Numbered from the stretch's first letter, positions 30,417 to 50,890 are shown. The stretch: DNA of 64,000 nt from Hyphomicrobiales bacterium (GCA_028285595.1 JANQOW010000007.1:19036-83035), one strand, 5' to 3'. The notes: a model not told the origin generated them from the letters alone. Program-made: numbers and translations.

Positions 30417-31760
30417 TCAATTGTCTTCGGTCCTATTGGCAAACTCGACAGTGAACACTTCCCGCTCTCCTTCCAAACCGCGAAGTGCAAACTTGCCAAT
30501 GGAAATGGTCGTAAAGTCCGCATTGAGCGCTTGTTCAGTCGATGCATCGATGAGCAGGCGCGCGCCAAGCTGTTTGCCCTGGCTTTCAAGCCGAGATGCC
30601 AGATTGACGGTGTCACCATAAACCGTGAATGCCTGTCGTCGGGAGGATCCAATATTCCCGGCAGCGATATCGCCAGATGCGATGCCGATCCGTATGTCGA
30701 ACTCGCTGCGGTCCGCCATAGCCAATAGGTCCAAAGCAGCTCTCACGGACTTTGGTTCGGGAAGATCAGTTTCGATAGGCGCATTGAAGGTGGCCAAAAG
30801 GCCATCGCCCGTAAAAGTGATGACGATCCCCTCGTGCTTGCTCACGATATCACTTGCGTCCGCCAGGAATGAATCGTGTGAAACAATCACGTCGTGAGGA
30901 TGGCGATCTGCGGCAAACTGCGTAAAGTCTGCAATATCGAGCACCAGAACGGATCCATGCCGCACTTGTGGTGCCAACGCATCCGGTCCCTCAACCAACT
31001 TATGAACGATTGCCTCTGGCACGTAGCGCCCCAAAGTGTTGGTGACCCGTTCCCGAGCCAGTCGCTCTTCTTCCTGCCGGACTTCTGCGGCTATCTGGGC
31101 GAAGAACACCTTCCGCGCCCGATAGACAGCCAAGCCCAAGATCAGGGCACCGGCAAACAACAGGCCCGTCTCCTCGATGCGATTTCCCACTCCGATAAAC
31201 CGGGCGGACAGGAACACATTTTCATAGTCCTCTCGTGTGGCCAGTTGAGGAATGTCGCCCCACGAGTAAACATTGTCCATGCCGGCAACGATCCACAAGA
31301 AAGCCGCCCACCATCCAACAACGGCAACGCACCCAGCCCATACGACGAGCCGCCAGGACAAGGACAAACACGCCATAGCCACCAGCGGGAACAGGTAATA
31401 GATGCCATAGGCGCGAAACGCGATGATCTGTGGGACGTCGCCGGTTGAGCTGACCGGGATTATCACAAACATTGCACAAACGCCGGCGATGTCGGCGGCA
31501 TATATGGCAAATTTGATCCACGGTCTGTCCAAACGGGTGCCGATTACCGCAAGGTGCGAAATTCCAAAGGCCGTGAATGCCAGCAAGGAAAGAACGGCGA
31601 GCGCTCGCACCTCGAAATCAGGCGACACCACTGACGCCCCGAGGTACCATACCAGCCCCGCAGCCGTTGCCGCTGTGCGGCAAAAGATTGCCAAGCGCAG
31701 GCCATTCTGTTCGGCCTTAACAAGTCGCCCCAACGCTCGCTCGCGAATTCGTTCCGGCAC
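30417..31760 (-). CDS. membrane-anchored class III nucleotidyl cyclase
   Basis: About 6 N-terminal TM helices plus a cyclase domain (VLDIADFT...ITFTGDGLLATF...FTVYGDTVNLASRLES). Confidence 0.82.
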   Translation of the reverse strand: MPERIRERALGRLVKAEQNGLRLAIFCRTAATAAGLVWYLGASVVSPDFEVRALAVLSLLAFTAFGISHLAVIGTRLDRPWIKFAIYAADIAGVCAMFVIIPVSSTGDVPQIIAFRAYGIYYLFPLVAMACLSLSWRLVVWAGCVAVVGWWAAFLWIVAGMDNVYSWGDIPQLATREDYENVFLSARFIGVGNRIEETGLLFAGALILGLAVYRARKVFFAQIAAEVRQEEERLARERVTNTLGRYVPEAIVHKLVEGPDALAPQVRHGSVLVLDIADFTQFAADRHPHDVIVSHDSFLADASDIVSKHEGIVITFTGDGLLATFNAPIETDLPEPKSVRAALDLLAMADRSEFDIRIGIASGDIAAGNIGSSRRQAFTVYGDTVNLASRLESQGKQLGARLLIDASTEQALNADFTTISIGKFALRGLEGEREVFTVEFANRTEDN

Positions 31761-31857: not shown

Positions 31858-32736
31858 ATGGAACTCAGGCACCTAAGATACTTCTTGGCCGTCGCTGAAT
31901 CTGGAGGCGTTCGCATGGCGGCGAACAGATTGCACGTCGCACAACCTGCAATATCCAGACAAATCAGAGATTTGGAGAATGAGCTCGGGTTCTCTTTGTT
32001 CGAACGCGTGGGCAGAGGGATAATCTTGACGGATGCGGGAAAGCACTACCTGGAACACGTTCGGCGCGTTTTGAAGGATCTGGATGAGGCTCAACGTTCA
32101 GCCGCACGAATTGCAGAGGGCCGAGGCGGTGTCTTGAGGATCGGCCTGCTGGAGAACGCTTCTTGGGCCGGGCATGCGCCGAGCACATTAAAGCGTTTCG
32201 CACGCAATCATCCCGACATCTCGTTGGAGATCAAACCGATGTCGTCGGTTGCCCAGCTGGAGTTGATCGCTGCTGGCGGTCTTGATGGTGGGTTCCTGTA
32301 CCGACAAGACAGGATGGACAGATCACTTCATGAGGTGGTTCCACTCCGAACCGATGACGTCGTCTTCGCCGCTTCAAGTGATCTCGTGTTTGATCACGAA
32401 AACGATCTAACGCTTGAGGATATTGAGGGGCTTCCTCTGGTTGGATTTCCGCGCGATGTGGCTCCGTCCTATTTCGATAGACTGCACGCTGCTTTGGAGC
32501 ATATCGGGTTTGAGCCGCACTATGCTCAACTGGTGGAGAACGAGACAATTATTCTAAGCCTCGTCTCCGCAGGCGTTGGCTGCGCCTTCGTCAACTCCGC
32601 TAACGAGGCGCGGCCGCCGCGTAATGTTCAGTTCCGGCGGGTCGAGGGTTTGTCGGTGCCCATCGACTTTCTGTTTGTTCACCGTCGCCCACCGGGCACG
32701 ACGTTATCGAAGTTCTTGGCGACGATCACTGAATGA
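31858..32736 (+). CDS. LysR family transcriptional regulator
   Basis: MELRHLRYFLAVAESGGVRMAANRLHVAQPAISRQIRDLE wHTH, 292 aa. Confidence 0.9.
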   Translation: MELRHLRYFLAVAESGGVRMAANRLHVAQPAISRQIRDLENELGFSLFERVGRGIILTDAGKHYLEHVRRVLKDLDEAQRSAARIAEGRGGVLRIGLLENASWAGHAPSTLKRFARNHPDISLEIKPMSSVAQLELIAAGGLDGGFLYRQDRMDRSLHEVVPLRTDDVVFAASSDLVFDHENDLTLEDIEGLPLVGFPRDVAPSYFDRLHAALEHIGFEPHYAQLVENETIILSLVSAGVGCAFVNSANEARPPRNVQFRRVEGLSVPIDFLFVHRRPPGTTLSKFLATITE

Positions 32737-33787: not shown

Positions 33788-34315
33788 ATGAAGACGTTTT
33801 TCTTTGCGCTCCTTGCCGCCAGCACGCTGTTAATAGGCTCGGCGCAAGCTGGAGGGCCTTTGAGCTCGGAAGACAGGCTGGCCATTAACAGAGTTGTCAC
33901 CGCCATTGCAGCGGGCGCTGACCGGCATGATTGGGACCGTGTGCGAGGTGCATTTGCGCAGACCGTAACCACTGACTACACGAGCCTGTTTGGCGGAGAG
34001 CCCGTAACCCAACCCGCTGATGCGCTTGTTGAGCAATGGTCGAAATTCCTTCCCGGCTTCGAGGCGACTCAACATCTGGTGACGAACATCTCGATCGATA
34101 AGATAAGCCCCGACAAAGCGCGCGCAGAAGCAGATTTTCAAGCAACTCATCGCATTGAGAGTGATCTCTGGGTGCTTGGAGGCCGGTACCAGTACGAGCT
34201 GACCCGCTTTGGCGTCGGCTGGCGCGTGACATCGCTCACCATGATCGCCTTATGGGAAACTGGTGATAGAGCAGGATTAATCGCTAGGGCCGGAAAACGA
34301 GCTGAAAAGCAATAA
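33788..34315 (+). CDS. secreted NTF2-like (SnoaL_4/DUF4440-like) protein
   Basis: Signal peptide MKTFFFALLAASTLLIGSAQA. NTF2-fold-like core by eye. Confidence 0.6.
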   Translation: MKTFFFALLAASTLLIGSAQAGGPLSSEDRLAINRVVTAIAAGADRHDWDRVRGAFAQTVTTDYTSLFGGEPVTQPADALVEQWSKFLPGFEATQHLVTNISIDKISPDKARAEADFQATHRIESDLWVLGGRYQYELTRFGVGWRVTSLTMIALWETGDRAGLIARAGKRAEKQ

Positions 34316-34525
34316 CTGCTCCTCAGTTGGTGGCGTGGCGCAGACTATGAGCTCCGATTGAGCACGGAAGGCGAGGAGGTTGCCTGGCAACACCCTCTAG
34401 CCAACATGCCGCCAACCTCCATTCTAGCTCGTGCAAGATCAGCCAAAGGCGCTACGAGGACATTGACGTGCCCTTCGTTCGAAGTCTGCGAAGTACCCAA
34501 AGGCAACATTCCTCGTGCCGCTTAC

Positions 34526-34564
34526 TGTCCGAAACTATCAAAAGGTTGTCCGTGATCGACATGT
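34526..34564 (+). promoter_or_regulatory. 27-bp element with TGTCCG direct repeat at 21-bp spacing, plus GACATGT (copy A)
   Basis: TGTCCGAAACTATCAAAAGGTTGTCCG at 34526-34552, then 5 nt, then GACATGT at 34558-34564. It lies 99 nt upstream of the ALDH start. Copy B at 40262-40300 differs at 1 of 27 positions. Confidence 0.55.
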
Positions 34565-34650
34565 AGGTTGGACCACGTTCCTGGCAAAACGGCATCATGA
34601 AAAGAGTTGAGAACGCTCTGCCATGAAGCTGCAGATTGAAGGAATGAACG

Positions 34651-36102
34651 ATGACCGCCTCCAACGTGATTGAGATCAACGATACAGCTAGAGAGTTGCG
34701 CACGTCCTTAGCCAAGAGTCGCCGTGCATTTCGATCGGATCCGGCACCATCGGAGAAAACCCGCATTGACCGTTTGAACCGGCTGCATACCGCCATCTTT
34801 GAGTACAAAGATCGCCTGATCGAAGCTGTAGATGATGACTTCGGCGGTCGCGCGAGCGCTGAAACACTCATGATTGAGATTTTGCCCATCCTTGAGGGCA
34901 TTCGTTACAACAAAAAAAATCTGCGCAAGTGGATGCGCAAGTCTAAGCGCCACACACCGCTTATGCTGCTCGGTGCCAAGACGACTGTCCACTATCAGCC
35001 GCTCGGTGTTGTCGGGATCGTGGTCCCGTGGAACTTCCCAATAATGCTTGGCCTGTCGCCGCTTGTGGGCGTACTCGCCGCCGGCAACCGCGCAATGATC
35101 AAAACTTCAGAGTTCACTCCGAAGACAGGAGCCTTGCTTGCGGAAATGATCGCCAAACACTTTGCGGACGACGAAGTTGTTATCGTGAAAGGCGGAGTGG
35201 GCGTTTCAACCGAGTTCACCAAGTTGCCGTTTGACCATCTCGTGTTTACCGGCTCGACCAGGGTTGGTCGTATCGTAATGCACGCCGCTGCAGACAATCT
35301 CACGCCGGTTACATTGGAGCTTGGGGGCAAATCACCAGCGATCATTCATGACAGCTTCCCCATCAAAGAAGCAGCTAATCGAATTGCCTTCGGTAAAGGA
35401 CTGAACGCGGGGCAGGCTTGTGTGGCGCCGGACTACATCCTGGCACCGCGCGCTAAAGTTGATGAGTTTGTGAGAGCGTTCGCTGACGCGTTCACCAAGC
35501 GCTATCCGGCACTTCAGGACAATCGGGACTACACATCTATCATCACCCAGAAGCAGCGTGATCGGCTGCTGGACAATGTGCGAGATGCCAAGGAGAAGCG
35601 CGCCAGCGTGTTCGAAATCAACCCAGCCAACGAGAGTTTTGAAGAGTCTCGCAAACTTCCGATGCACGTGGTGACTAACGTCTCAGACGACATGCTTGTG
35701 ATGCAGGAAGAGATCTTCGGGCCTGTTTTGCCAGTGGTTGCCTACGACACGCTCGAAGAAGCGATCTCTTATGTGAATGATCGCGACCGCCCGTTGGCCC
35801 TGTACTATTTTGACTGGGATAAGGGTCGGGCTGAAAGGGTCATCAACGAGACCCATTCCGGGGGCGCTTGTATCAATGAAGTTATGACCAATGTGGCGGT
35901 GGATGACTTGCCCTTCGGCGGTGTCGGTTCTTCCGGCATGGGTCATTATCACGGCAAAGAAGGGTTCCTCAGCTTCTCCAAAGCCAAGGGTATCGTTGAA
36001 AAAGGCCGTTTCGACGGGAACGCATTAATTGGTGCGCCCTGGGACAACAAGTACTTCAACTTCTTCGTGAACTTTCAGCTGCGCAGGTTCAGAAATCCCT
36101 GA
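34651..36102 (+). CDS. aldehyde dehydrogenase (coniferyl-aldehyde/ALDH3-like)
   Basis: 483 aa with LELGGKSP and GQACVAPDY catalytic motifs. Confidence 0.88.
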   Translation: MTASNVIEINDTARELRTSLAKSRRAFRSDPAPSEKTRIDRLNRLHTAIFEYKDRLIEAVDDDFGGRASAETLMIEILPILEGIRYNKKNLRKWMRKSKRHTPLMLLGAKTTVHYQPLGVVGIVVPWNFPIMLGLSPLVGVLAAGNRAMIKTSEFTPKTGALLAEMIAKHFADDEVVIVKGGVGVSTEFTKLPFDHLVFTGSTRVGRIVMHAAADNLTPVTLELGGKSPAIIHDSFPIKEAANRIAFGKGLNAGQACVAPDYILAPRAKVDEFVRAFADAFTKRYPALQDNRDYTSIITQKQRDRLLDNVRDAKEKRASVFEINPANESFEESRKLPMHVVTNVSDDMLVMQEEIFGPVLPVVAYDTLEEAISYVNDRDRPLALYYFDWDKGRAERVINETHSGGACINEVMTNVAVDDLPFGGVGSSGMGHYHGKEGFLSFSKAKGIVEKGRFDGNALIGAPWDNKYFNFFVNFQLRRFRNP

Positions 36103-36205
36103 AACGCGAGAAGCGGTCCGCGAGGTCGGCGGCGTGGCTAGCCCGACCTGCGACCACGCTCATCAGGACAAATCGCAACAAACTAGACCCCAAAGGGACA
36201 ATAGC

Positions 36206-37417
36206 ATGTTCAACACCATCACCACCCTGGCCCTTCGTGCCATGTCGACTTTCTACACCCCACAAAAGCCAATCGTTTTTTCTGGCGCGGGATCCACCCG
36301 GAAGCTTGCGGACTTGATGATCCGTGGCGGGCAAAAGCGACCGCTGCTCGTTGCAGATAGTTTTCTGATTAAGAATGGAATGCTCGATGAGCTGATCGCC
36401 TTCATGGAGAGCGAAGGCTGTTCGGTCACTATCTTCGACGGTATCATTCCCAACCCAACTTTCGCAGTGGTTGAAGCTGGGCTGAACGCCAGCAGACAAA
36501 ACAACTGCGACGCAGTGTTTGTCGTGGGCGGTGGCTCTGCGATTGACGCGGCGAAAGTCATGGCATCGGCCAGCACCAGCAAAAAGTCACTTGCCCAACT
36601 CACAGGATTCTTGAAGGTCGATAAACCGCTCCTGCCATTCTACGCCGTCCCGACGACATCGGGGACAGGGTCTGAGGTGACCACTGTGGCGGTGGTGTCG
36701 GACACAGAAACCGGCAAGAAAAAGTTCTTCATCGATCCCAAATACATTCCAATCGCCACGGCGCTCGACACCGATCTCCTCAAGTCCCTGCCAGCCCCCA
36801 TGACAGCGGCAACCGGCATGGATGCACTGACGCACGCTATTGAAGCTTACACATCTCGCGGCCGTCTAGCGGACACTGACCGTGACGCAGCAATGGCGAT
36901 AAAGCTGCTTTTTGAATTCTTGCCGGTGGCGTTCGAGAAGGGCGACGACCTGCACGCACGCGAGATGGTGGCTTTGGGATCATTTCTGGCCGGCTGCTCG
37001 TTCACGAAAGCGGGCCTCGGCTATGTGCACGCGATTTCGCACCAGATAAGCGCGCATTACGACACGCCGCACGGACTGGCAAATGCCGTTATCCTGCCGC
37101 GTGTCTTGCGCTTCAACAAGCCGGTCTGCGCTTCTCGGTTTGCGTCGCTTGAGCGAATGATGAGTGAAGATCAGTCCAAAGCAAGTGACGCAGTGTTGGC
37201 TGATAAATTCATCGCACGTGTCGATGCACTTGCTGAAGCCGTAAACATTCCTTTCAGGCTTTCAGATTTGCAGCCTTCCGATTTTGGGTCCATTGCGAAA
37301 GATGCTCTCTCGGAAGCGCGGTCATCTTATGCCGTCCCCCGCGTTATGAACCGGAATGATATTTATAGAATTCTGGACTCTGCCTGCTCCGGCGAACGCG
37401 ACGTCTCTTTCGCGTAG
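36206..37417 (+). CDS. iron-containing (group III) alcohol dehydrogenase
   Basis: GGGSAIDAAK, TTSGTGSEVT and metal-binding His region HAISHQISAHYDTPHG. Start set at MFNTITT (36206). Confidence 0.85.
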   Translation: MFNTITTLALRAMSTFYTPQKPIVFSGAGSTRKLADLMIRGGQKRPLLVADSFLIKNGMLDELIAFMESEGCSVTIFDGIIPNPTFAVVEAGLNASRQNNCDAVFVVGGGSAIDAAKVMASASTSKKSLAQLTGFLKVDKPLLPFYAVPTTSGTGSEVTTVAVVSDTETGKKKFFIDPKYIPIATALDTDLLKSLPAPMTAATGMDALTHAIEAYTSRGRLADTDRDAAMAIKLLFEFLPVAFEKGDDLHAREMVALGSFLAGCSFTKAGLGYVHAISHQISAHYDTPHGLANAVILPRVLRFNKPVCASRFASLERMMSEDQSKASDAVLADKFIARVDALAEAVNIPFRLSDLQPSDFGSIAKDALSEARSSYAVPRVMNRNDIYRILDSACSGERDVSFA

Positions 37418-37452
37418 CCAGGGTTTCAAGCCCACATTTTGAGGATAACCAG

Positions 37453-37767
37453 ATGATCCCGGTGATGTGTGTCGTTCAACAGGGGCAAATTTCTACCGAA
37501 ACTGAATCGGCCATGAAGGTTGAAATCTGCGAAATTGTGCAGAAAGCCCTGAACAGCATGGCAAAAATTGATTGGATTGAAGTGCCCAAAGGCAGCGGTT
37601 TCACGGCCGCCAAGCCGTCAAATGCGGTGATCACTTCGGTTTACGCAGATAGGCCATTGGCAGAAATCGAACGCAACAGGTTGCTCCAAGAGCTTCGCGA
37701 CACTTGTGCGAGTCGAACGGGAAAATCTCTTTCCGATGTGGTGGCATACGTGCGCGACCCGACATAA
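37453..37767 (+). CDS. tautomerase-superfamily-like small protein lacking N-terminal Pro-1 (Met-Ile-Pro)
   Basis: 104 aa. Paralogous by eye to the next ORF: MIPVMCVVQQGQISTETESAMKVEICEIVQ versus MPLYVCNSVQGTISEEAKEKIAAEITSIQ. Confidence 0.5.
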   Translation: MIPVMCVVQQGQISTETESAMKVEICEIVQKALNSMAKIDWIEVPKGSGFTAAKPSNAVITSVYADRPLAEIERNRLLQELRDTCASRTGKSLSDVVAYVRDPT

Positions 37768-37782
37768 CGGAGACTTATCAAA

Positions 37783-38136
37783 ATGCCCCTCTATGTTTGC
37801 AACTCCGTGCAGGGCACGATCTCTGAGGAAGCTAAGGAGAAAATTGCTGCGGAGATCACAAGTATCCAGTGTGAGGTCATCGGCTCACGGTCAGATCTGG
37901 TGCACATGTTCTTTTTCGAAGATGCGCCGCAGCGGCCACTCAATGGGATGCGGGTGCTTCTGTTCGGAAGTATCCGCGGTGAGCGGAGTGACGAGGAAAA
38001 GCATGCGCTGGCCGTGCAGATGAAACGGTCCATTCAGACACACGCTGATGTTGCGTTGAACGAAATCATCGTCGATGTGTCTGATGTTCCATCCGGTTGG
38101 GTTCTGGAGGGTAGTGGTACCTTGCTCCAACCCTGA
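37783..38136 (+). CDS. tautomerase family protein (4-OT superfamily, long form) with Pro-1
   Basis: 117 aa starting MPLYVC.... Beta-alpha-beta-like repeat pattern. Confidence 0.6.
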   Translation: MPLYVCNSVQGTISEEAKEKIAAEITSIQCEVIGSRSDLVHMFFFEDAPQRPLNGMRVLLFGSIRGERSDEEKHALAVQMKRSIQTHADVALNEIIVDVSDVPSGWVLEGSGTLLQP

Positions 38137-38233
38137 GATGTACGGGCGCACCGGGAAAAACGAACCTGTCGAAGCTCCGAACTTCAGAGCTAGTTTCCTA
38201 AAGCTTCATATCGCTCGGCAGGATGGCGTCGTT

Positions 38234-39268
38234 CTATGCGTTGATTTTGCTTGAGTCTTTTCTTCGAACTTCGCCAGGTGTCGTGCCAAACTTCTTGGAG
38301 AATGCCCGCACGAAGCTTGCGGTTTCTGAGTAACCTACACGCCAGGCAACGGTCTCGACATTAAGGCCGGCGCTTTCGAGAAGCTCATTGGCAAGCATCA
38401 TCCGGACATCAGTGTAAAGGTGGCGAAAGCTGGTGCCTTCTTCGGTTAGCCGGCGGCGGAGCGTCCTCTCCGTCACGGCCAGCCGCTCGGCAATATCCTC
38501 AATCTTTTGCTCCATCCCGATCCCGTCAACGACCGCATCTCGCACTTTTTGCGACCATGGAGGAAGCGTGCCGCCAATTTGCTCTAGCAGCATTTTGCAC
38601 TGATCAAGACAATAGTTCAGTGTGACCGGGTCAGATTTTGGGAGCGTGGTGCTGAGGGACTCTGCTGGAAATGCGAGGGCATTCCTTGTGCTGGAACTCA
38701 TCACGGGAATCTGCATTACAGCCGAAAGCTCTCGAGCATAAGATGTGTCCGCGTCTGTGGTCCACAACTCGAAACCTTCGAATTCTGGATCCTGCAACAA
38801 TTCGCTAATGAATGTCATGCCGACTGTCGAGTGGCGTTCTAGGATAAATCTGTGAATCGTCTCCGGCAGGCCCGACATACCGAATTCCAGAAATGCCAAG
38901 CCATCGTTTTCATCCATTGCCAAGTCTGAGAGGATTGATGAGAGCTTCGCATACTCGACCGCAGTCTCAACAGCGGCCCTAAGCGTTGGGCTGGTCAGGA
39001 TCGCAAAACCCCAAATGCCGAACGCGTGGACATGCATTCTGCGAGCGAACTTAGTTCCTAATCCGGCATCTTTGGGCGCCAGCCGAACGAAGTTTTCGAT
39101 TGCTTGAACTTCCTGCTCTGCCGCGAACAAAGCAGATGGCTCAGTTAAGTTTGAAGGGTCCACCCCGGTGTTTTCAAGACAGGCTGCCGTACCTATGCCC
39201 ATCTCTTCTGCAATCTCGCAGAGCAATCTTAAGGTCGTAGCTGTACGGGTGTTACTTTGTACAATCAT
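38234..39268 (-). CDS. AraC family transcriptional regulator (AraC_binding_2-type N-terminal domain)
   Basis: 344 aa with a C-terminal double HTH (...IEDIAERLAVTERTLRRRLTEEGTSFRHLYTDVRMMLANELL...VGYSETASFVRAFSKKFGTTPGEVR). Confidence 0.9.
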   Translation of the reverse strand: MIVQSNTRTATTLRLLCEIAEEMGIGTAACLENTGVDPSNLTEPSALFAAEQEVQAIENFVRLAPKDAGLGTKFARRMHVHAFGIWGFAILTSPTLRAAVETAVEYAKLSSILSDLAMDENDGLAFLEFGMSGLPETIHRFILERHSTVGMTFISELLQDPEFEGFELWTTDADTSYARELSAVMQIPVMSSSTRNALAFPAESLSTTLPKSDPVTLNYCLDQCKMLLEQIGGTLPPWSQKVRDAVVDGIGMEQKIEDIAERLAVTERTLRRRLTEEGTSFRHLYTDVRMMLANELLESAGLNVETVAWRVGYSETASFVRAFSKKFGTTPGEVRRKDSSKINA

Positions 39269-39505
39269 TGGCCGAACCTAACTTCCTCGGTCCAACATAT
39301 CAAACATAGAATTAGATTGCTAAGTTGTTGCTTTGACACCCAGAAGCAAACTTTCTGCAGGCTGTCCAGTTCCCAATGTCTGGGCCATCAACAGCAAAGA
39401 GCTTGCGAGCCGCTCACTTGCGGTCTTGCGATCAAGTGCAAGCATCCAGTCTCGGGTGCATGAATTGTCACGTGAATTCCTCTCAAGAATGTTTGCTATT
39501 GCGTT

Positions 39506-39946
39506 TTAGCCGGCATCTTGAACCTTTTCATCGCCGATGCGACGAAGCACTTCGAACAAAAAGGCAGTCTCCAGCCCAAACAAAATGAACCCTCCGGTCG
39601 CGATGAATCCCGAGAACATCCCCCACTTGATCGGAAGGGTTATGTCCCCAAATCCCAAAGTGGTGAACGCAATCATAGTAAAATATAGTGACGTGTATAG
39701 GTCATCGAACAGCCCAAAGAGGCAAAGCAGGATTGCCCAAAGCAGCATCACGACGAACATTCCGAGAGAGAGCCAAAAGGCCATAAATGTCAGCGTAGCC
39801 ACTTGATTGGCCAAAGAGAAAGTGCCCGCAATCCTGATCGCAATGGCTTCAAGGAGTTTCTTGCCTATAATTATCATGAATGAGATGGTCGCAATGCTGA
39901 TTGCCAACATGACGGCACCAACGGCGGCTTGAATGACTACGTTCAT
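39506..39946 (-). CDS. small potassium-channel-like protein (Ion_trans_2)
   Basis: 146 aa with selectivity-filter-like TTLGFGD between hydrophobic helices. AGGAGAA RBS. Confidence 0.75.
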   Translation of the reverse strand: MNVVIQAAVGAVMLAISIATISFMIIIGKKLLEAIAIRIAGTFSLANQVATLTFMAFWLSLGMFVVMLLWAILLCLFGLFDDLYTSLYFTMIAFTTLGFGDITLPIKWGMFSGFIATGGFILFGLETAFLFEVLRRIGDEKVQDAG

Positions 39947-40261
39947 TTCCGTTCTCCTGCGGAAGCCTCACCGGCCATAAGCCGCTTGGTATGTTGGTCG
40001 GTGAAATCAACAAACCACACGATTTCCGCTCGCCCTTCTTCGGTGTAGAGCAGCACATCATTGGTTCGGCTGTGAGCGGGCTGAAGGCGTTGTGACATTT
40101 GACGAAGCCTGTGGTTCGAACTCTAAGCTCTATCGTCACAAAGGAATTGGTGAGTTCCCATGTCTTTTGCGGACAGTTGTTTGACAATTCCAGCCATCGC
40201 GTTGGCGATTGTCTCGGGCCCTATCGGCGTGGAGGTCGGCTGAGATCCAACACGGCCGCCG

Positions 40262-40300
40262 TGTCCGAAACTATCAAAAGTTTGTCCGGCGCTGACATGT
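40262..40300 (+). promoter_or_regulatory. 27-bp element with TGTCCG direct repeat at 21-bp spacing, plus GACATGT (copy B)
   Basis: TGTCCGAAACTATCAAAAGTTTGTCCG at 40262-40288, then 5 nt, then GACATGT at 40294-40300. It lies 137 nt upstream of the RND adaptor start, in the divergent K-channel/RND intergenic region. Confidence 0.55.
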
Positions 40301-40424
40301 TGGCCGAACTCCCACTTAGCGATGATGCATCCACGTACTGATCGCGCTGTGTGGCCGGACCGGAGCCGTTGAAACGGAAAGCGCGTGACAATGAAGTGCC
40401 CAACCTTTGACGGGAGCAAGAGCT

Positions 40425-41540
40425 ATGAAGGCATCCACAATTCTTACACCAGCGATCGCGGCTCTATCTTTGTTTGTGCTCGCCGCGTGCGATTCAGAAG
40501 AACCTGCCACCAAACCAACCCCGGTTCGTCCGGTGCTATCGATGGTCGTGGCGGACGTGGAAGCAATTCGGCTGTCTACATATCCCGGCCGCGCAAAAGC
40601 AGTTCACGAGGTCAACGTTGGATTTGAGGTGCCTGGCAAGATGCTGAGCCGGCCGGTCAAGGTCGGCTCAAAAGTGAAGGCCGGGGACGTTTTGGGTATT
40701 CTCGATACTGCTCCCTACAAAGCGCGAGTTCGCGCATTGGAAGGACAAAGAGCATCGCTCTTGGCCAATCTCAAGAACGCCAGACTGGAACTCAAGCGCC
40801 GGGAAGATCTGGCCCAGAAGGGTTTTGTCGCCCAGGCGCGCGTGGATGATCAAGTTGCGGTCGTCAACTCCACACTCGCAAACATTGAAGCAACAGAGGG
40901 TTCGTTGGATGAAGCACGGCTCAATCTGAGATACACGAGCCTTGTTGCGCCATTCGATGGCACGGTCTCCGAAACCTTCATCGACAACTTTCAGAACGTC
41001 AACGCGCGACAGCCCGTAGTTCGATTGCTCGACACGTCGAAAATTGAGATGGAGATTGCCGTTCCGGAAAACCTGATTGGTCTGGAACCTTATGTTGAAA
41101 GCGTCGAGGTCGTGTTCTCCAGCCTGAAGGACGTCACAATTCCCGCGAAGATCGCGCGCATTGGCAACGAAGCATCGACCACAACCCGCACCTATCCTGT
41201 CACCCTGATTATGGAGCAGCCGAAAGCCGGTACAATTCAGCCAGGTATGGCCGGCCAGGCAACAGCAAAGATCCGGTTGCCTGAAGATTGGCAAAAGACC
41301 GGCATTAAGGTCCCGGCCAGCGCGGTGTTTTCCCCAGACGCGAACAAGCCTTCCGAGACGTTCGTTTGGATCATCGAATCTCAACCCATGAAAGTTGTGA
41401 CCAAGCGCGTCACCATCAAGTCATTCACTGAGCGCGGCCTGCTTGTAACCGGACTCAATGCCGGCGACCGGATCGTTACGGCTGGTGTCAACACGCTGAC
41501 CGACGGCCAGGTGGTCAGACTTCTTAAAGATGTGGAGTAG
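40425..41540 (+). CDS. efflux RND transporter periplasmic adaptor (MFP) lipoprotein
   Basis: Lipobox LFVLAAC. HlyD-like coiled-coil and beta-barrel pattern. Start at MKASTIL. Confidence 0.88.
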   Translation: MKASTILTPAIAALSLFVLAACDSEEPATKPTPVRPVLSMVVADVEAIRLSTYPGRAKAVHEVNVGFEVPGKMLSRPVKVGSKVKAGDVLGILDTAPYKARVRALEGQRASLLANLKNARLELKRREDLAQKGFVAQARVDDQVAVVNSTLANIEATEGSLDEARLNLRYTSLVAPFDGTVSETFIDNFQNVNARQPVVRLLDTSKIEMEIAVPENLIGLEPYVESVEVVFSSLKDVTIPAKIARIGNEASTTTRTYPVTLIMEQPKAGTIQPGMAGQATAKIRLPEDWQKTGIKVPASAVFSPDANKPSETFVWIIESQPMKVVTKRVTIKSFTERGLLVTGLNAGDRIVTAGVNTLTDGQVVRLLKDVE

Positions 41541-41544
41541 TTCA

Positions 41545-44500
41545 ATGTCTCTTCCTGCCTTCGCCATAAAGAACCGGGCCGTAACCTATTTCTCATTGTT
41601 CCTGCTCCTCGTGATTGGAGCATTTGCGTACCTTCAGCTAGGACAATTGGAAGAACCGGAGTTCACCGTAAAGACCGCTTTGGTCGTCACGCAGTACCCC
41701 GGCGCGAGTCCAAAAGAAGTCGAACTTGAGGTAACCGACAAGATTGAAACTGCAATCCAGGAACTGCCGGAGCTCGAATTCCTCACGTCGTTCTCTCATG
41801 CCGGGTTGTCCATTGTTCAAGTCGAGATCAAGCAGGAGTTCTGGAGCGATCGACTTCCCCAGGTTTGGGACAAGTTGCGTCACAAGGTCAATGACACCAG
41901 AGCGCAACTGCCGCCAGGCGTTGGAGCGCCGAATGTTGTTGATGACTTCAGCTTCGTCTATGGCTTCGTCCTTGCCGTGACGGGAGATGGTTTCAAGTAT
42001 GAAGAGCTTGAAAAACACGTCAAAGACATTCGCAAAGAGCTAAGCCTGGTGAATGGCGTTGCGCGGGTGGAAACGTGGGGTCTCCAACCTAAAGCGATCT
42101 ACCTGGATGTGTCTGAGCAAAAACTGGTTGACCTCGGAATATCTACGCTGGACTTCGTGAACACGCTGAACGTGCAGAATCAGGTCGTGGACTCAGGTTC
42201 GCTCGAAATCAATGAACGGCGCATGAGGGTTGCGCAAACTGGACAATTCAAAGCGCCGGAGGATATTGGAAACCTGCGTTTGAGGCCCACCTTTCGGGAC
42301 CGCATTGCAGACGCCCTTCAGGCATTGCCAGCCACCAGGCCTTTGGTGACGGAACGAAGCTCTGATGTCGTTCGCGTTCGCGACATCGCTAAAGTCCATC
42401 AAGGTTACATCGAACCACGGCTGACGGAGATGCGATTTAACGGTCAACTCGCCATTGGGCTTTCAATCGCCAACGTGGCCGGAGGAAACATCGTCGACAC
42501 CGGCAAGAACCTGTCTGCTGCCTTGGAGGAGATTACGTCCAGACTGCCGGTTGGGATTGAGATCCATAAAGTGAGTTGGCAGAGCGATCTCGTCTCTGAA
42601 TCGATCGACTCATTCACGATCAGTCTGCTCGAAGCGGTCCTCATCGTTCTTGTGGTGATCTCTCTGTTCATGGGATGGCGCATGGGATTGATCATCGGCA
42701 GTGCTCTGCTGCTGACGATCCTTGCAACCTTCATCGTCATGGTGGTTCTGAAGATCGATCTGCATCGGGTATCGCTGGGTGCTCTGGTCATTGCACTCGG
42801 TATGATGGTCGACAACGCCATTGTTGTCGCAGATGGAATGGCGACCAGACTCAAGAAAGGAATGGGGAGACTGGAGGCTGCGATCGAATCCGCCTCACGG
42901 CCCAGTATCGCGCTTTTAGGGGCGACTATTGTTGCGGCTATGGCGTTCTTCCCAATCTATGCATCAAGTTCGGATGTGGGTGAGTACGCTGGATCGCTCT
43001 TTGTGGTCGTTGCTGTTTCATTGGTGCTCAGTTGGGTCATCGCCATGACCATAACTCCCCTGATGTGTTTGGACATGGTCAAGCTGCCCGAGACCCCTGG
43101 AGGACAAAGGGAAAGCATTCTGCTTGGGCTGTTCCGTCGGATTTTGACGCTTTGTCTTAGGTTTAGAGTGGTTACAACGCTCGTCATGATCGGATTGCTC
43201 GGCATTTCAATCGCCGGATTCGGCTATGTGGAGCGGGTGTTCTTCACTGACGCAACACGCCAACAGTTCATGATGGATATTTGGGCCGAACAGGGCACAA
43301 CCATCGCACAAACGTCGCAACTTGCGAGGCGTGTTGAGAAAAAATTGAGAGATGATCCGCGTGTCGAGAGTGTTACGACTTTCATTGGATCTGGTGGGCC
43401 GCGCTTCTATCTGCCGGTTGATCCGGAGTTTCCTAATGCAAGCTATGCTCAGCTCGTGGTGAATACGTCTACACTTGAAGGGGTCAATCCTCTGGTTGAT
43501 TCACTCAAGGCTTGGGCGAAAGAGGCTATGCCAGAAGCGCTTGTGCGCTTGCGGAAGTACTCTGTGGGGCCGGGCAACACCTGGCCGTTCGAAGCGCGGT
43601 TCAGCGGCCCTGCCAACGCGGATCCACAGGTTCTCAGAACGCTTGCCGAGCAGGGCAAAGCGATCCTTCGCGCAACACCGCACGCTAAAGACATCCGCAG
43701 CGACATGCGAAACCGAGCACCCAAGATCGTGGCCGAATATGATCAATTGACGGGCGTGTGGACGGGTGTTTCTCGCCGCGACATTGCGAACGCATTCCGC
43801 ATCGGGTTCGACGGCTTGCCTGTCGGTGTTTACCGGGAGAAGGACGATCTGATGCGGATTGTGTTGCGTCGGAACAAGCAGGAACGGGACGTGGTGGCAC
43901 GAGACGTGGAGAAGATACAGATCTCACCACCGCTCAGCACGAAAAGTGTTCCGCTGTCCGCAGTCACAAGTGGCACCAATGTGGAGTTGGAGGATCCCAC
44001 CATCGTTCGCTGGAACCGGCGCCGCTCGGTGGCCGTGCAAGCCAGTCCTGATGGAGTAACCTTGCCCAGTCTGGTTGAAGAGGTTAGAGCGGAGTTTGAA
44101 GCCATCAAACTCCCCCCTGGATACAAGCTGGAATGGCGGGGTGAAACCTACAGCACGGCTGATGCTCAGGATTCGTTGAAGCCGGGCGCTGCACCCGCCT
44201 TGGTGATCATGGTGTTCCTGGTGGTGGCACTGTTCAACGCGTTCCGTCCCACGATCGTTATCTTTGCCGTCGTTCCATTCGCCTTGATCGGTATCACAGG
44301 TGGCCTGCTGCTGTTCAATCAACCCTTCTCCTTCATGGCGCTGCTTGGGGCAATGAGTTTGGTGGGATTGATGATCAAGAATGCCATCGTTCTTTTGGAA
44401 GAAGTGAATGTCAATTTAGAGAAGGGCATGGAACGATACGATGCCCTCACGGAGGCCGCCGTTTCCCGTTTCAGTCCAGTCCTTTTGGGTGCTGGAACGA

Positions 44501-44676
44501 CGATCTTTGGTGTGCTCCCGCTCCTGCAGGACATTTTCTGGGTCGCGATGGCAACCACAATTGCCGCCGGCCTGACCTTCGGCACCATTGTGACGATGAT
44601 CCTTGTGCCGGTGTTCTACGCCCTGTTCCACGGCATTACCGAGAACACCCAAGCTAAGGATCTCACCGCTGCTTAG
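41545..44676 (+). CDS. efflux RND transporter permease (AcrB/HAE1-like)
   Basis: About 1043 aa, 12-TM AcrB architecture. Start MSLPAFAIKNRAV lies 4 nt after the adaptor stop. Confidence 0.92.
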   Translation: MSLPAFAIKNRAVTYFSLFLLLVIGAFAYLQLGQLEEPEFTVKTALVVTQYPGASPKEVELEVTDKIETAIQELPELEFLTSFSHAGLSIVQVEIKQEFWSDRLPQVWDKLRHKVNDTRAQLPPGVGAPNVVDDFSFVYGFVLAVTGDGFKYEELEKHVKDIRKELSLVNGVARVETWGLQPKAIYLDVSEQKLVDLGISTLDFVNTLNVQNQVVDSGSLEINERRMRVAQTGQFKAPEDIGNLRLRPTFRDRIADALQALPATRPLVTERSSDVVRVRDIAKVHQGYIEPRLTEMRFNGQLAIGLSIANVAGGNIVDTGKNLSAALEEITSRLPVGIEIHKVSWQSDLVSESIDSFTISLLEAVLIVLVVISLFMGWRMGLIIGSALLLTILATFIVMVVLKIDLHRVSLGALVIALGMMVDNAIVVADGMATRLKKGMGRLEAAIESASRPSIALLGATIVAAMAFFPIYASSSDVGEYAGSLFVVVAVSLVLSWVIAMTITPLMCLDMVKLPETPGGQRESILLGLFRRILTLCLRFRVVTTLVMIGLLGISIAGFGYVERVFFTDATRQQFMMDIWAEQGTTIAQTSQLARRVEKKLRDDPRVESVTTFIGSGGPRFYLPVDPEFPNASYAQLVVNTSTLEGVNPLVDSLKAWAKEAMPEALVRLRKYSVGPGNTWPFEARFSGPANADPQVLRTLAEQGKAILRATPHAKDIRSDMRNRAPKIVAEYDQLTGVWTGVSRRDIANAFRIGFDGLPVGVYREKDDLMRIVLRRNKQERDVVARDVEKIQISPPLSTKSVPLSAVTSGTNVELEDPTIVRWNRRRSVAVQASPDGVTLPSLVEEVRAEFEAIKLPPGYKLEWRGETYSTADAQDSLKPGAAPALVIMVFLVVALFNAFRPTIVIFAVVPFALIGITGGLLLFNQPFSFMALLGAMSLVGLMIKNAIVLLEEVNVNLEKGMERYDALTEAAVSRFSPVLLGAGTTIFGVLPLLQDIFWVAMATTIAAGLTFGTIVTMILVPVFYALFHGITENTQAKDLTAA

Positions 44677-44886
44677 GTTGGTCAGATAGAAGGCCTCCAG
44701 GTAAGTGCCGTACCCCTACTGCTCACAGGAACTGCTGAAGCGCAGCTCACTGCGGACTGATCGGACGAACTGCTGACGGTCAGCATCCAAGCACCGCCGA
44801 ATAGCTCACCTGGGAGTGAGTTGGTGTGGCCGCCTGTTTGGACGAGTGCTCGATGAAGAGGTGAGTTTAGAAGGACCTGTCAGGCG

Positions 44887-45489
44887 ATGAGATTGCCAAT
44901 CCAGACGAGACTGCGTAACGGCACAAACGTGCTCATCAGGCCTCTTGTACCTGACGACGCTCAGTTCTTGATTGATGGATTTGAGCGGTTGTCATCTCAA
45001 TCAAGGTTTCAGCGGTTCTTCCGACCGGTTTCAAGGCTGAGCGGCGCTCTGCTTGAGCAACTGGCCGATGTTGGTCATGCAGGACACGAGGCGGTTTCTG
45101 CATTCGCGTTTGCAGATGGGCGAATGGTGCCGCTCGGAGTTGCGAGGTACGTCCGATCCCCTTCCAATGCGAGTACGGCTGAAGTTGCGATAACTGTTGT
45201 CGATGAGCACCAGCGAACGGGACTTGGTTCGTTGCTACTCCGCTGCCTGGCTTATCGCGCCAAGGTGAACAAAATCTCGGAGTTCACGGCTCATGTGCTT
45301 CAAGATAACGCCGGCATGATTGCGATCTTCAGGCAGCTGGGCAGTACGATCGTCCCAACTGATGATGGCACGTTCAAAGTTCGCTTTACAATTCCAGAAG
45401 GCATCACGGCGCTATCAGATGATGCCAGTCCCAAGGACCTTTTCAGGCGAGTCTCTGAAGACCAACTGGAGACAAGAAGCCGGGCATGA
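44887..45489 (+). CDS. GNAT family N-acetyltransferase (Pat-type GNAT domain, stand-alone)
   Basis: IRPLVPDDAQFLIDGFERLSSQSRFQRFF...VVDEHQRTGLGSLLL resembles the acetyltransferase domain of protein lysine acetyltransferases. Confidence 0.75.
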   Translation: MRLPIQTRLRNGTNVLIRPLVPDDAQFLIDGFERLSSQSRFQRFFRPVSRLSGALLEQLADVGHAGHEAVSAFAFADGRMVPLGVARYVRSPSNASTAEVAITVVDEHQRTGLGSLLLRCLAYRAKVNKISEFTAHVLQDNAGMIAIFRQLGSTIVPTDDGTFKVRFTIPEGITALSDDASPKDLFRRVSEDQLETRSRA

Positions 45490-45571
45490 TCCGGTCCGCA
45501 AGGAAGACCGGGCGTGACTATTGCCGATTTGACAAACAGCCTCACGCTCATTCACCAGTTGGGCGCTTTCG

Positions 45572-46015
45572 TCAGTTTTGCGAGTTTGAATCCCATACCT
45601 GAGCGAGCGGAAACACCGCGAACAGAAGCTGACCATAGAACTTGAGCTGGCCAAACGGGGAAGCTTGGAGCTCAAGTTGGTCCGCCACACTTTCAGACAG
45701 TATGATTGAAGAAACTGCCACGTCGGCGATCAGCCAGAGAATCAGCGCAGAAAGTCCCATCACCGCGCGCGCTCCCAACTGACTGGGAACATCAAACCGT
45801 TCGATGAGGGATCGACATAAGATCCAAGCCGCGATGAATAGAACGGGGATCTCGATCGCCAGGATGACCACGTCAGGCAGGGCACCCGTCAAAATCATCT
45901 CACGAACTAAGCTCACTACCCCAGCGATCGCGAACATCGCCGCGAAATAGGTTAGTCCAGCTTTTAGAGAGGGTTTCATAATCGTAGCTCCCGAAAAAAG
46001 AAGAAAGACCGCCAA
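45572..46015 (-). CDS. hypothetical membrane protein (about 4 TM)
   Basis: Hydrophobic 147-aa ORF with no recognisable family. An alternative start exists at MKPSLKAG (45979). Confidence 0.5.
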   Translation of the reverse strand: MAVFLLFSGATIMKPSLKAGLTYFAAMFAIAGVVSLVREMILTGALPDVVILAIEIPVLFIAAWILCRSLIERFDVPSQLGARAVMGLSALILWLIADVAVSSIILSESVADQLELQASPFGQLKFYGQLLFAVFPLAQVWDSNSQN

Positions 46016-46030
46016 ATTTTTCTACTGCGA

Positions 46031-46423: not shown

Positions 46424-46499
46424 TCTAGTGTTCCTTTATCAATTTGCTTTCCGGCTCTTTTGGCATCGTGAAAACTGCGGTTCTCTGAAACTTGTGTGC

Positions 46500-47153: not shown

Positions 47154-47397
47154 GGTGCCTCCGACAGCGCTTGCTGTTTGCGATGGGATAACAGTAGAGC
47201 TTCGTCCGCCGATTTACCTCGTTCTGATCGGACAGACTCTTGATAGTTCAGGACAAAAAGACTGAGTAATCGCCGCGCTCGGAAGCCTTTGCCTTGCGAC
47301 ATTGCAGCAAGACTTTCAGGTTGGCTCGATTTTCCGGGCGGCGCAGGATCTCGGCTCATCGCGCCCCCTTGAAACCCAATGACGGCTTCGAAGACAC

Positions 47398-47428
47398 AAA
47401 AAAGCGCTCCCTGCTCGGAGCGCTTTTT
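47398..47428 (-). terminator. rho-independent (bidirectional-looking) terminator downstream of the Fe-ADH gene
   Basis: AGCGCTCC (47403-47410) pairs with GGAGCGCT (47417-47424) around a 6-nt loop. It is flanked by an A-run (47398-47403) and a T-run (47424-47428). Confidence 0.75.
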
Positions 47429-47505
47429 CAGTTCTGGATGCAGTCTTTGAGCGCTATGAAATCAGCTTGGCTGATGAGTTCCCACCGGTCATCTTGGTCA
47501 AAATC

Positions 47506-49523: not shown

Positions 49524-49974
49524 TTTGTTCTCATCCTTCGTTAGGTGTTGGTCCTTGCCAGGAGCGATCTGCTTTGTGTTTGTCGCGCTGACAGGGATTT
49601 TTTTAAGATGAATAGACCGAACCAACGATGTTCTCCGCGGACAAAAGATTGTCGAATTAGGACAACCAAAACGTTTGCCTCGATGAGTATTATTTCGTGA
49701 ACCTTCCCGCCGCAGCGGCAGTGCCGCTATGACTGATGGATTCACGTTTTTTCAATTTTATCAGTAGGTTAAAGACTTAAGTCGGAGCTTGGCGACAGAT
49801 CACAATTTGATTTCTGTCTCATCAGAAAATATAGAATTGCACTGGTCATTCGGGACACTGTGCAACTTGCAAGAAATCAGGTGCGCCGATCGTGGAAATT
49901 TTATTGGGGTAGGCGTCTCAAAAGAAATGCTCGTCAGGTGAAAAAGGAATTCCGATCTTTGGCGCTGGGCCGGA

Positions 49975-50679
49975 TCAGCGGACAGAGGCTGCTGGCAGCG
50001 TAATGCTATCCACTTTGTCGTGCCATTCGGCCAACCTGTTGAAGCGAGGAAGTAAGGCTGCAGGTTCCTCAGCGCATTTCAAGACGGTGATCATTGAAGC
50101 GATTGAAATATCTGCCACTGAGATTTGGTTTCCAACCAACCATTCCCCACGTTCCAGAAAGGTCTCCAACGCGACGAAATGATCTTCGATCGAGCGCATC
50201 AGTGTCGCTCCAGTTTTGCGCCCGAGACCTTGGGAGTTGACGGATTTTCGGATCATGCCAGGCAGCAGCCGGTTCATGATGACCCGTGTTATGCCCGTCT
50301 CGTATCTCGCGAAGTCATCGACAAAACGAGCCATGTTGTTCGGCTTGCTCCTGATGGACATATCATAGAAGTAGAGACTCTCGTCCGACCAATCCTCAAG
50401 AACATGCGCCTGTGCTCTGTGGAGCGGATCGCTGGGAATCAACATTGGGCTTGGCGCGAGCACATCCAACTTCCGAACGATCTCCGAGCTGTCGATCGTA
50501 ATCTCACCATCAATATCGATTGCTGGGAGTTTCCTGGTCGGAGCGATTTTTTTGAACTTTCCAAGCTGACTAGGAAGAACCTCGACGGTTTCAAAACCTA
50601 AGTTCTTGATGTTGAGAGCACGGCGCACCTTGTCCGCGAACGGGGATATCTCGAACTGATATAGTACAATCTTGGGCAT
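49975..50679 (-). CDS. glutathione S-transferase family protein
   Basis: MPKIVLYQFEISPFADKVRRAL thioredoxin-like N-domain. Start moved to 50679. Confidence 0.8.
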   Translation of the reverse strand: MPKIVLYQFEISPFADKVRRALNIKNLGFETVEVLPSQLGKFKKIAPTRKLPAIDIDGEITIDSSEIVRKLDVLAPSPMLIPSDPLHRAQAHVLEDWSDESLYFYDMSIRSKPNNMARFVDDFARYETGITRVIMNRLLPGMIRKSVNSQGLGRKTGATLMRSIEDHFVALETFLERGEWLVGNQISVADISIASMITVLKCAEEPAALLPRFNRLAEWHDKVDSITLPAASVR

Positions 50680-50890
50680 GGCTTGCTCGTCTTTCGGGTT
50701 CAATGCGGGGCTAGAAGTGCCAAAGACAACCCGTTGCAAACATGTTTCAAGCGGACAAAAAGTTGAGAGTTTCGGACATGGGCCAATCCAGTGCCGACGA
50801 AGATTGACGTCCAAGCTGCAATTCCCAGTTTTGTCTGGGAGGCTCACTTAAGCTTCCATGCAAGTCGGTGTGTCGCGGACACACCAACCA

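Follow-up and report, generated by a model that had tools for sequence, protein, structure and literature searches.

Six copies of a tandem-repeat module around an AraC-family gene in a Hyphomicrobiales genome: a candidate operator conserved across phyla

Introduction

At the Pm promoter of the TOL plasmid of Pseudomonas putida, the AraC/XylS-family regulator XylS recognizes two homologous 15-bp direct repeats, each combining an A box (TGCA) with a B box (GGTA) at a distance of 6 bp, which are bound by two monomers in succession (PMC5481539). Here we describe a comparable arrangement in 64,000 nt of the genome of a Hyphomicrobiales bacterium (GCA_028285595.1, JANQOW010000007.1:19036-83035; this whole stretch is the window in what follows, with positions counted from its first letter), in which six copies of a 39-nt module lie in front of genes on either side of, and including, a gene for an AraC/XylS-family regulator. 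Gonzalez-Perez et al. are said to have placed the Pm repeats at -70/-56 and -49/-35. As in XylS/Pm, the window module consists of two direct-repeat units with an A and a B box each, one AraC-type domain being expected per unit, and the promoter-proximal unit reaches the -35 region. It differs from the XylS system in its boxes (TGTCCG and RWCAW), in the N-terminus of the regulator, which is a PF12625 domain and not the XylS effector domain, in occurring at six promoters of one island instead of a single promoter, and in being predicted from sequence.

GliR, QhpR, and CypR resemble the window's regulator in being PF12625-type AraC proteins, and are activators of adjacent catabolic operons. GliR (PA3027) activates a divergent operon through one motif that overlaps the -35 and a second motif upstream (PMC8151288). 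The spacing of its motifs, YYGGCGHTDTYSGMC and GGAYAWCGCCG, differs from that of the window module. Other AraC-type regulators respond to reactive aldehydes or electrophiles. CmrA of Pseudomonas aeruginosa links electrophile stress to the resistance-nodulation-division (RND) pump MexEF-OprN. In Escherichia coli, the AraC-type activator YqhC stands beside YqhD, an aldehyde reductase of the iron-type alcohol dehydrogenase (Fe-ADH) kind (PMC8262776). YqhC and CmrA are possible functional analogies to the window's regulator, homology being at the level of the generic helix-turn-helix (HTH). A literature search combining the hexamer TGTCCG with "AraC" returned primer matches only, and a paper on Acinetobacter almA/AraC contained no comparable binding site.

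The window elements have a defined sequence architecture, are conserved across phyla, are associated with one AraC orthogroup, and are followed by a -10 hexamer at a fixed distance. We consider it likely that they represent the operator half of activator-dependent sigma-70-type promoters, bound by the AraC protein encoded at 38234-39268. This regulator probably switches on a cluster of aldehyde/alcohol-oxidizing, detoxifying, and efflux genes. The novelty lies in the strict tandem arrangement at the promoter, the regulon, and the taxa concerned, the proposed mechanism being textbook AraC/XylS regulation.

Results and Discussion

Six Modules in the Window

A first-pass annotation of the window had drawn attention to two 27-bp elements, TGTCCGAAACTATCAAAAGGTTGTCCG at 34526-34552 and TGTCCGAAACTATCAAAAGTTTGTCCG at 40262-40288. 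Both lie on the plus strand, are identical at 26/27 positions, and are followed after five variable nucleotides by GACATGT (34558-34564 and 40294-40300), an arrangement with a chance expectation of 0.00. On re-reading, the coordinates, sequences, strand, match count, and N5-GACATGT spacing given in that annotation were exact, and the flanking operons are as it described them, namely aldehyde dehydrogenase (ALDH)/Fe-ADH/tautomerase-like genes on one side and an RND membrane-fusion protein and pump on the other. Comparison of the flanks of the two elements bore out its remark that they are unrelated, revealing neither similarity nor terminal repeats. The search that it had proposed for the 27-mer with up to three mismatches, run on the 64-kb window, returned only the two original places (0.00 expected in 100 shuffles).

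Further copies came from a search for the two hexamers alone, set at a 21-bp distance and allowed two mismatches at most, which gave 19 matches versus 6.9 expected; four of these share the inner sequence and a GACAT-like downstream box. Six copies of the 39-nt module TGKCCGRAAnTRTCAA-N5-TGTCCG-N5-RACATGk are thus present in the window (sites A to F, table 1), all of them intergenic and each oriented toward a downstream gene. With a 39-nt weight matrix, the six sites score 39.5-47.5 bits, and the next best score in 64 kb is 16.6 bits, which comes from one of the same sites read on its opposite strand. All six are at most 12 kb from the only AraC-type gene of the window. The first-pass annotation had proposed a regulon of two promoters; both belong to the set, but their number has grown to six.

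An information profile of 57 sites aligned with their flanks places the conserved positions at 1-9 (TGKCCGRAA), 11-16 (TRTCAA), 21-27 (yTGTCCG), and 33-37 (RACAT), with a weaker contribution from 38-39 and almost none from position 10 and the blocks 17-20 and 28-32. When positions 1-17 are overlaid on 22-38, both halves read TGTCCG-N5-R-W-C-A-W, so that the module amounts to a pair of direct-repeat units repeating every 21 bp. In each unit, an A box (TGTCCG, with TGKCCG as the distal form; positions 1-6 and 22-27) is followed after a 5-nt gap by a B box (RWCAW; positions 12-16 and 33-37), the two being one helical turn apart. Such a layout is what one AraC-type DNA-binding domain, with its two HTHs in two adjacent major grooves, would be expected to recognize, and it agrees with the suggestion in the annotation of 21-bp direct repeats set against a promoter. 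The GACATGT string of the two original elements is best read as mostly the B box of the promoter-proximal unit. A single unit, TGKCCG-N5-RWCA, is found 11 times in the window versus 1.5 expected, and since 7 of the 11 matches fall within the six modules, units occur essentially only as tandem pairs. An imperfect dyad, TGTC-N7-RWCA, is present within each unit. Because 22/27 positions of the original 27-mer are informative motif positions, the two elements are nearly identical mostly because each is close to the consensus.

Predicted Promoter Geometry

The flank columns beyond position 39, which were outside the search matrix, carry an A at position 61 in 50/57 sites, a T at 65 in 48/57, and a G at 66 in 35/57, and position 72 is a purine in 48/57; the remaining flank columns reach about 0.4 bits at most. 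This pattern is the signature of a predicted -10 hexamer, nAnnnT (positions 60-65), and a start at position 72, both at a fixed distance from the module, the -10 element lying 22 nt downstream of it; an extended -10, with TG at 57-58, is seen in many ALDH promoters. Given the fixed -10 and the start at 72, the module would span about -71 to -35. The corresponding -35, at 36-41 or 37-42 (aTGTcg), would match TTGACA poorly and share 1-2 nt with the B box. Predicted starts give leaders of 27-93 nt, although the leader at site F is short only if the 51-aa open reading frame (ORF) of the public assembly is real.

Two other promoter assignments were considered and rejected. The first-pass annotation had taken a -35 to overlap GACATGT, but the conserved -10 is 23 nt beyond nnGACA, too far for sigma-70, and GACAT is accounted for as the B box of the proximal unit. 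A sigma-54 reading of the TGGCA-like strings 3' of sites A and D fails on the GG-to-GC spacing.

A generic sigma-70 scan of the six intergenic regions detected no consensus promoter, in line with dependence on an activator. This bears on the alternative that the AraC protein binds the modules but mainly represses, or acts as a dual regulator that loops DNA, for instance between sites B and F, which stand back to back and divergent with 65 bp between their distal ends. E. coli AraC represses by looping (summarized in PMC8151288), CdpR is reported to repress its own gene (PMC4847859), and in the Actinomycetota and Tateyamaria loci described below the module would overlap the AraC gene's own promoter. 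In the window, the module nevertheless lies wholly upstream of the -35, leaving the -10 and the start uncovered, the -35 hexamers are poor in a way that is typical of activator dependence, and most AraC/XylS members of this geometry activate. We therefore regard repression or looping as rather unlikely and activation as the better account of these promoters.

Conservation of the Module in Other Genomes

From an alignment of 31 AraC homologs, 64 loci were fetched on one-genome-per-species contigs, 44 of them with orthologs (43-65% identity) and 20 with paralogs (28-34%), and scanned with the six-site matrix at a threshold of 23 bits. We found 51 sites in 38/44 ortholog loci, so that the check for conservation in relatives that the annotation had proposed gave a positive outcome. 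No site reached the threshold in the 20 paralog loci (373 kb; best 17.5 bits) or in the ortholog loci after shuffling (20 shuffles; best 20.8 bits). The difference between ortholog and paralog loci is significant (Fisher p 1e-11), with the reservation that the loci are phylogenetically related and so not independent. Module-bearing loci span the Alpha- and Gammaproteobacteria and the Actinomycetota, and include metagenome-assembled genomes (MAGs) of Actinomycetota, Arenicellales, and Woeseiaceae as well as Photobacterium, Bacterioplanoides, and Kordiimonas. The module in these loci always faces a downstream gene, and in at least eight of them the AraC gene itself is downstream of the site on the same strand. 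In Actinomycetota MAGs (L028-L035, L041, and L043, with a regulator 46-49% identical), the module is 30-70 bp from the AraC start codon, as it is in the Tateyamaria loci. Four of the six ortholog loci without a site at threshold are either short contigs (two) or have a subthreshold site (two, at 22.0 and 20.4 bits); the other two, L003 and L017, are considered below.

Several loci carry two modules. In L013 (2611 and 4302, plus strand) and L014 (6181 and 7829, plus strand), two modules serve one operon, with one before ALDH and one before Fe-ADH, and in L015 (14908 and 15466, minus strand) and L016 (14904 and 15461, minus strand) they are about 557 bp apart upstream of ALDH. Many of the related Actinomycetota MAGs share isolate-name prefixes (PL25a, IP29b, P01_*), which suggests few source studies or environments.

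In a reverse scan of a metagenome collection with a degenerate pattern, only 12 matches were obtained, which marks the pattern as rare, with short flanks that give the scan low power. About four look like chance matches inside genes, and 7/12 lie beside ALDH, Fe-ADH, hyp104, or AraC homologs.

These distributions also speak to the possibility that the module has no regulatory role, being either a dispersed repeat of the type of repetitive extragenic palindromes (REP) or miniature inverted-repeat transposable elements (MITE) or the remnant of a duplicated coding fragment. The latter had been offered as an alternative in the annotation on account of the peptide GQ(P/T)FDSFG in a minus-strand frame, which is correct as a translation. 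The frame is open, and at site B it is in frame within a 98-aa ORF; furthermore, sites A and B agree at 4/5 of the uninformative positions of the 27-mer, a small excess (p about 0.02, by our own estimate). At site A, however, the peptide frame is out of step with the overlapping minus-strand ORF, and variable positions form blocks of 4-5 nt, apart from the isolated position 10, and do not recur every 3 nt, which argues against a coding origin. A dispersed repeat is opposed by the presence of only six copies in the window, all at promoters and co-oriented with the downstream gene, by unlike flanks lacking terminal repeats, and by the metagenome matches, which are few and mostly beside ALDH/Fe-ADH homologs. 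Conservation across phyla together with a -10 at a fixed distance argues against both versions, and we consider either one exceedingly improbable. The coding-relic idea is accordingly rejected in favor of a promoter element.

The AraC-Family Regulator

The 344-aa regulator matches PF12625 ("Arabinose_bd"; E 9.2e-28) over the full model length at residues 24-208 and HTH_18 (E 1.6e-20) at residues 259-336, confirming the family assignment made in the first-pass annotation. Among NCBIfam models, its best full-length matches are QhpR (150 bits), GliR (110), and CypR (102). As the equivalog cut-offs (250, 570, and 500, respectively) are much higher, the protein is not an ortholog of any of the three, and it is, judged by its domains, an uncharacterized member of the PF12625-type AraC subfamily. 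Its closest database relatives are 64% identical. Relatives with names belong to marine Alphaproteobacteria, among them Shimia, Hoeflea, Silicimonas, and Cohaesibacter.

In the PDB, the protein matches CdpR, GadX, and Rns in their DNA-binding domains. The closest solved structure is that of CdpR of P. aeruginosa (5CHH, E 2e-12), with about 45% identity over the 80-residue HTH region and an identical recognition helix (VTERTLRRRL). CdpR also has a PF12625 N-terminal domain (PMC4847859). For VqsM (PA2227), another AraC-family regulator of that species, a motif of GG[AT]N5[TC]CGGCCA was obtained by chromatin immunoprecipitation sequencing and footprinting, and the footprinted lasI site is TGATCTTTTCGGACG (PMC4176358). 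Read on the other strand, the VqsM motif is TGGCCG-N6-WCC and the lasI site is CGTCCGAAAAGATCA, which shares 12/15 bases with positions 1-15 of site A; of the three mismatches, two are at position 10, where conservation is lowest, and position 11, one of the less conserved. The CdpR (PA2588) motif quoted in the GliR paper, RGWYNNNWNCGGCCA (PMC8151288), becomes TGGCCGNWNNNRWCY on the other strand and is of the TGGCCG-N5-RWCY type. A different sequence, CTGCGCCTGGATGAT, was footprinted in the 2016 CdpR paper (PMC4847859), and the quoted CdpR motif is thus provisional. Because the VqsM footprint and the quoted CdpR motif resemble one repeat unit, such a unit appears to be a known type of monomer site for AraC regulators of this kind. 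The likeness of VqsM to the window's system is at the level of the DNA motif: the VqsM and CdpR motifs were reported as 15-bp sites that occur singly, in many cases within genes, and belong to quorum-sensing and virulence networks, whereas in the window the motif forms strict tandem pairs at fixed promoter positions in front of catabolic and detoxification genes.

The shared motif type means that a different protein might be the binder, and the module could be the operator of a LysR-type regulator encoded at 31858-32736, 1.8 kb upstream of site A, or of an AraC paralog outside the window. The partial dyad TGTC-N7-GACA and the -71 to -35 position would suit a LysR-type regulator too. The LysR protein, however, lacks an ortholog in the motif-bearing loci (weak matches in 4/77, at most 34% identical over the N-terminal 126 residues, apart from one match of 60 residues confined to the HTH domain), and the units are direct repeats and not a dyad. 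The AraC orthogroup, in contrast, accompanies the motif in 38/44 loci whose gene contexts are otherwise unrelated, and the window has a single AraC gene. We judge another regulator to be distinctly improbable. That the adjoining AraC protein is the binder, as the annotation had proposed, is favored by the module traveling with AraC orthologs in three phyla, by the fixed -10, and by the likeness to the VqsM motif.

A Model for the Regulon and Points against It

In the model that we favor, two subunits of the AraC protein would sit on the two units of the module, probably as a dimer held by the PF12625 domain. With the proximal B box overlapping the weak -35, the bound protein would recruit or contact RNA polymerase in a class II manner. 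One regulator would in this way co-induce six transcription units in a 17-kb island, comprising the operon for ALDH, Fe-ADH, and two cis-CaaD-like proteins, the RND pump, the glutathione S-transferase (GST), the GXWXG/DUF4334 gene, perhaps together with a second Fe-ADH, the NAD(P)-binding protein, and the channel-like gene followed by the AraC gene. As a low-confidence guess, the inducer might be the alcohol or aldehyde substrate or a related reactive or hydrophobic compound.

Several points weigh against this model. Every functional step in it, that is, binding, activation, dimer binding, and autoregulation, is deduced from sequence. The loci were retrieved via the AraC gene, which is hence present by construction, and among the 12 metagenome matches, with their short flanks, a single one shows an AraC ortholog and another a distant paralog. 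No site is present in L003 or L017 despite their full flanks, although both look rearranged. At sites A and D, the predicted -10 hexamer does not end in T. The other loci showed no link to RND efflux within 10 kb. Finally, modules also adjoin AraC paralogs that are only 24% identical (L007 and L067), so that a paralog elsewhere in this genome could recognize the same sites; a wider clade of AraC regulators seems to use this type of motif.

The sequences beside these distant paralogs (L007 6510-6548 and 8287-8325 and L067 3606-3644, all on the minus strand) are operator-like with a variant proximal B box, GGTCAT, and those of L007 precede a di-haem cytochrome c peroxidase/MauG-like gene. In L003 (11000-13800), an AraC gene whose product is among the closest relatives of the window's protein (64% identity) stands beside Fe-ADH and both tautomerase-like genes, without ALDH and without the module. 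Another ORF abuts the truncated start of this Fe-ADH, and rearrangement or chimeric MAG assembly is possible.

Predicted Target Genes in the Window and Elsewhere

Genes downstream of the six sites are listed in table 1. The first four form the core operon, and in most proteobacterial loci the site is likewise followed by ALDH, Fe-ADH, the 104-aa protein, and a tautomerase-like protein, the operon being either convergent with the AraC gene, as in the window, or carrying the AraC gene as its last member. Genes downstream of the sites in other lineages differ, with an alpha/beta-hydrolase and a pyridine-nucleotide-disulphide oxidoreductase divergent from the AraC gene in Actinomycetota, DoxX and an Old-Yellow-Enzyme-type reductase or a flavin-containing monooxygenase (FMO)-like or lipocalin-like protein in Kordiimonas and relatives, a porin and a DcuC carrier in Tateyamaria, and an acyl-CoA-synthetase-like protein, a GMC oxidoreductase, or a di-haem peroxidase in further lineages. 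No gene family other than AraC is common to all lineage groups, in loci that were selected for carrying AraC. No GST, GXWXG, NAD-binding, or RND ortholog was found just downstream of the sites in the other loci. On these comparisons, ALDH, Fe-ADH, and the two cis-CaaD-like proteins are the predicted core target conserved across phyla, and RND, GST, and the others appear lineage specific. The idea of the annotation that oxidation and efflux belong to one regulon is therefore upheld for this window, but the RND link, as it was not found elsewhere within 10 kb, appears specific to this genome. The pump may, as the annotation suggested, export the same toxic compound or a related one.

Table 1. 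Modules, Predicted Promoter Elements, and Genes of the Window.
Feature	Position	Strand	Sequence or description	Bits	Predicted -10	Predicted start
Site A	34526..34564	+	TGTCCGAAACTATCAAAAGGTTGTCCG-tgatc-GACATGT; distal unit 34526-34542, proximal unit 34547-34563; upstream of ALDH operon	47.0	CAAAAC 34585-34590 (TG 34582-34583)	about 34597
ALDH	34651-36102	+	Benzaldehyde/coniferyl-aldehyde-dehydrogenase type; first gene of core operon 34651..38136
Fe-ADH	36134-37417	+	Core operon
cis-CaaD-like paralog	37453-37767	+	104 aa, without Pro-1; core operon
cis-CaaD-family protein	37783-38136	+	117 aa, with Pro-1; core operon
AraC/XylS-family regulator	38234..39268	-	344 aa; PF12625 N-terminal and C-terminal double-HTH
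K+-channel-like protein	39946-39506	-	Small, two transmembrane segments; TTLGFGD filter-like motif; overlaps 51-aa ORF
51-aa ORF	40098-39943	-	Between site F and AraC gene
Site F	40158..40196	-	TGGCTGGAATTGTCAAACAACTGTCCG-caaaa-GACATGG; faces 51-aa ORF, channel-like gene, AraC gene	40.6	GACGAT 40137-40132	about 40125
Site B	40262..40300	+	TGTCCGAAACTATCAAAAGTTTGTCCG-gcgct-GACATGT; upstream of RND membrane-fusion and pump genes	47.5	GATGAT 40321-40326	about 40333
RND membrane-fusion protein	40407..41540	+	Likely start ATG 40426
AcrB-type RND pump	41530-44676	+
Two ORFs after NAD-binding gene	46423-46031, 46015-45572	-	No Pfam or NCBIfam match
NAD(P)-binding/epimerase-like protein	47153-46500	-	217 aa; downstream of site C
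Site C	47217..47255	-	TGTCCTGAACTATCAAGAGTCTGTCCG-atcag-AACGAGG; upstream of 217-aa NAD(P)-binding protein	41.6	TACTGT 47196-47191	about 47184
Second Fe-ADH	48687-47506	-	272-nt gap after GXWXG/DUF4334 gene; co-transcription uncertain
GXWXG/DUF4334 protein	49523-48960	-	Downstream of site E
Site E	49626..49664	-	TGTCCTAATTCGACAATCTTTTGTCCG-cggag-AACATCG; upstream of GXWXG/DUF4334 gene	39.5	TAAAAA 49605-49600	about 49593
Glutathione S-transferase	49975..50679	-	234 aa; start ATG 50679; downstream of site D
Site D	50740..50778	-	TGTCCGAAACTCTCAACTTTTTGTCCG-cttga-AACATGT; upstream of glutathione S-transferase gene	46.0	CACTTC 50719-50714	about 50707

The two small proteins of the core operon differ at the N-terminus. 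A profile of the 117-aa family, which begins with Met-Pro (MPLY...), matches Ps01740 (2e-27), Cg10062 (2e-24), and cis-3-chloroacrylic acid dehalogenase (1e-19); most orthologs carry His in the motif "DIHC", for which the window's protein has Gln. In the 104-aa protein, the N-terminus reads MIPVMC, which is conserved, and Pro-1 is hence lacking. Its family profile matches Ps01740 in the PDB (5UIF) at 5e-8, and as profile-profile comparison with the tautomerase family is weak (hhalign probability 7.5%, E 0.005), its relatedness to tautomerases rests on the 5UIF match and the shared N-terminal pattern. The lack of Pro-1 suggests that it may be a heteromeric or noncatalytic partner. The function of Cg10062 and the biological roles of most members of the tautomerase superfamily have been stated to be unknown (PMC5818174).

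The enzyme types of the core operon appear to mirror the 1,3-dichloropropene route. This route leads from an allylic alcohol through the aldehyde and 3-haloacrylate to malonate semialdehyde. A broader proposal, unlikely as it stands, is that AraC and its operator form an ancient cross-phylum sensor-regulon module, mostly of marine MAGs (Alpha- and Gammaproteobacteria and Acidimicrobiia-type Actinomycetota), with an invariant core of Fe-ADH, ALDH, and a cis-CaaD-family pair, one with and one without Pro-1, that serves a natural pathway. If this were true, the core would take an unsaturated, acetylenic, or halogenated C3-type alcohol via the aldehyde and acid to malonate semialdehyde, providing a natural counterpart of the 1,3-dichloropropene route and a physiological role for cis-CaaD homologs. 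An inducible promoter-regulator pair at cis-CaaD-like genes would offer a practical screen for the natural substrate. The present analysis assigns a candidate operator motif, promoter geometry, and regulon to an uncharacterized AraC orthogroup that extends from Proteobacteria to Actinomycetota, mostly in uncultured marine members, and makes a directly testable prediction of six promoters under one regulator.

The 51-aa ORF and the channel-like gene downstream of site F may be co-transcribed with the AraC gene. A K+-channel-like protein would not readily be expected in a detoxification regulon. The RND pump gene is not followed by a gene for an outer-membrane factor. The 17-kb island with all six sites (window 34000-52000) has a slightly lower G+C content, 51-55% versus 56-59% around it, and may be an acquired island. 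Genes with an adenylate/guanylate-cyclase domain lie on either side of it, at 30417-31760 on the minus strand and at 51903-53912 on the plus strand, the second encoding an MHYT-PAS-cyclase.

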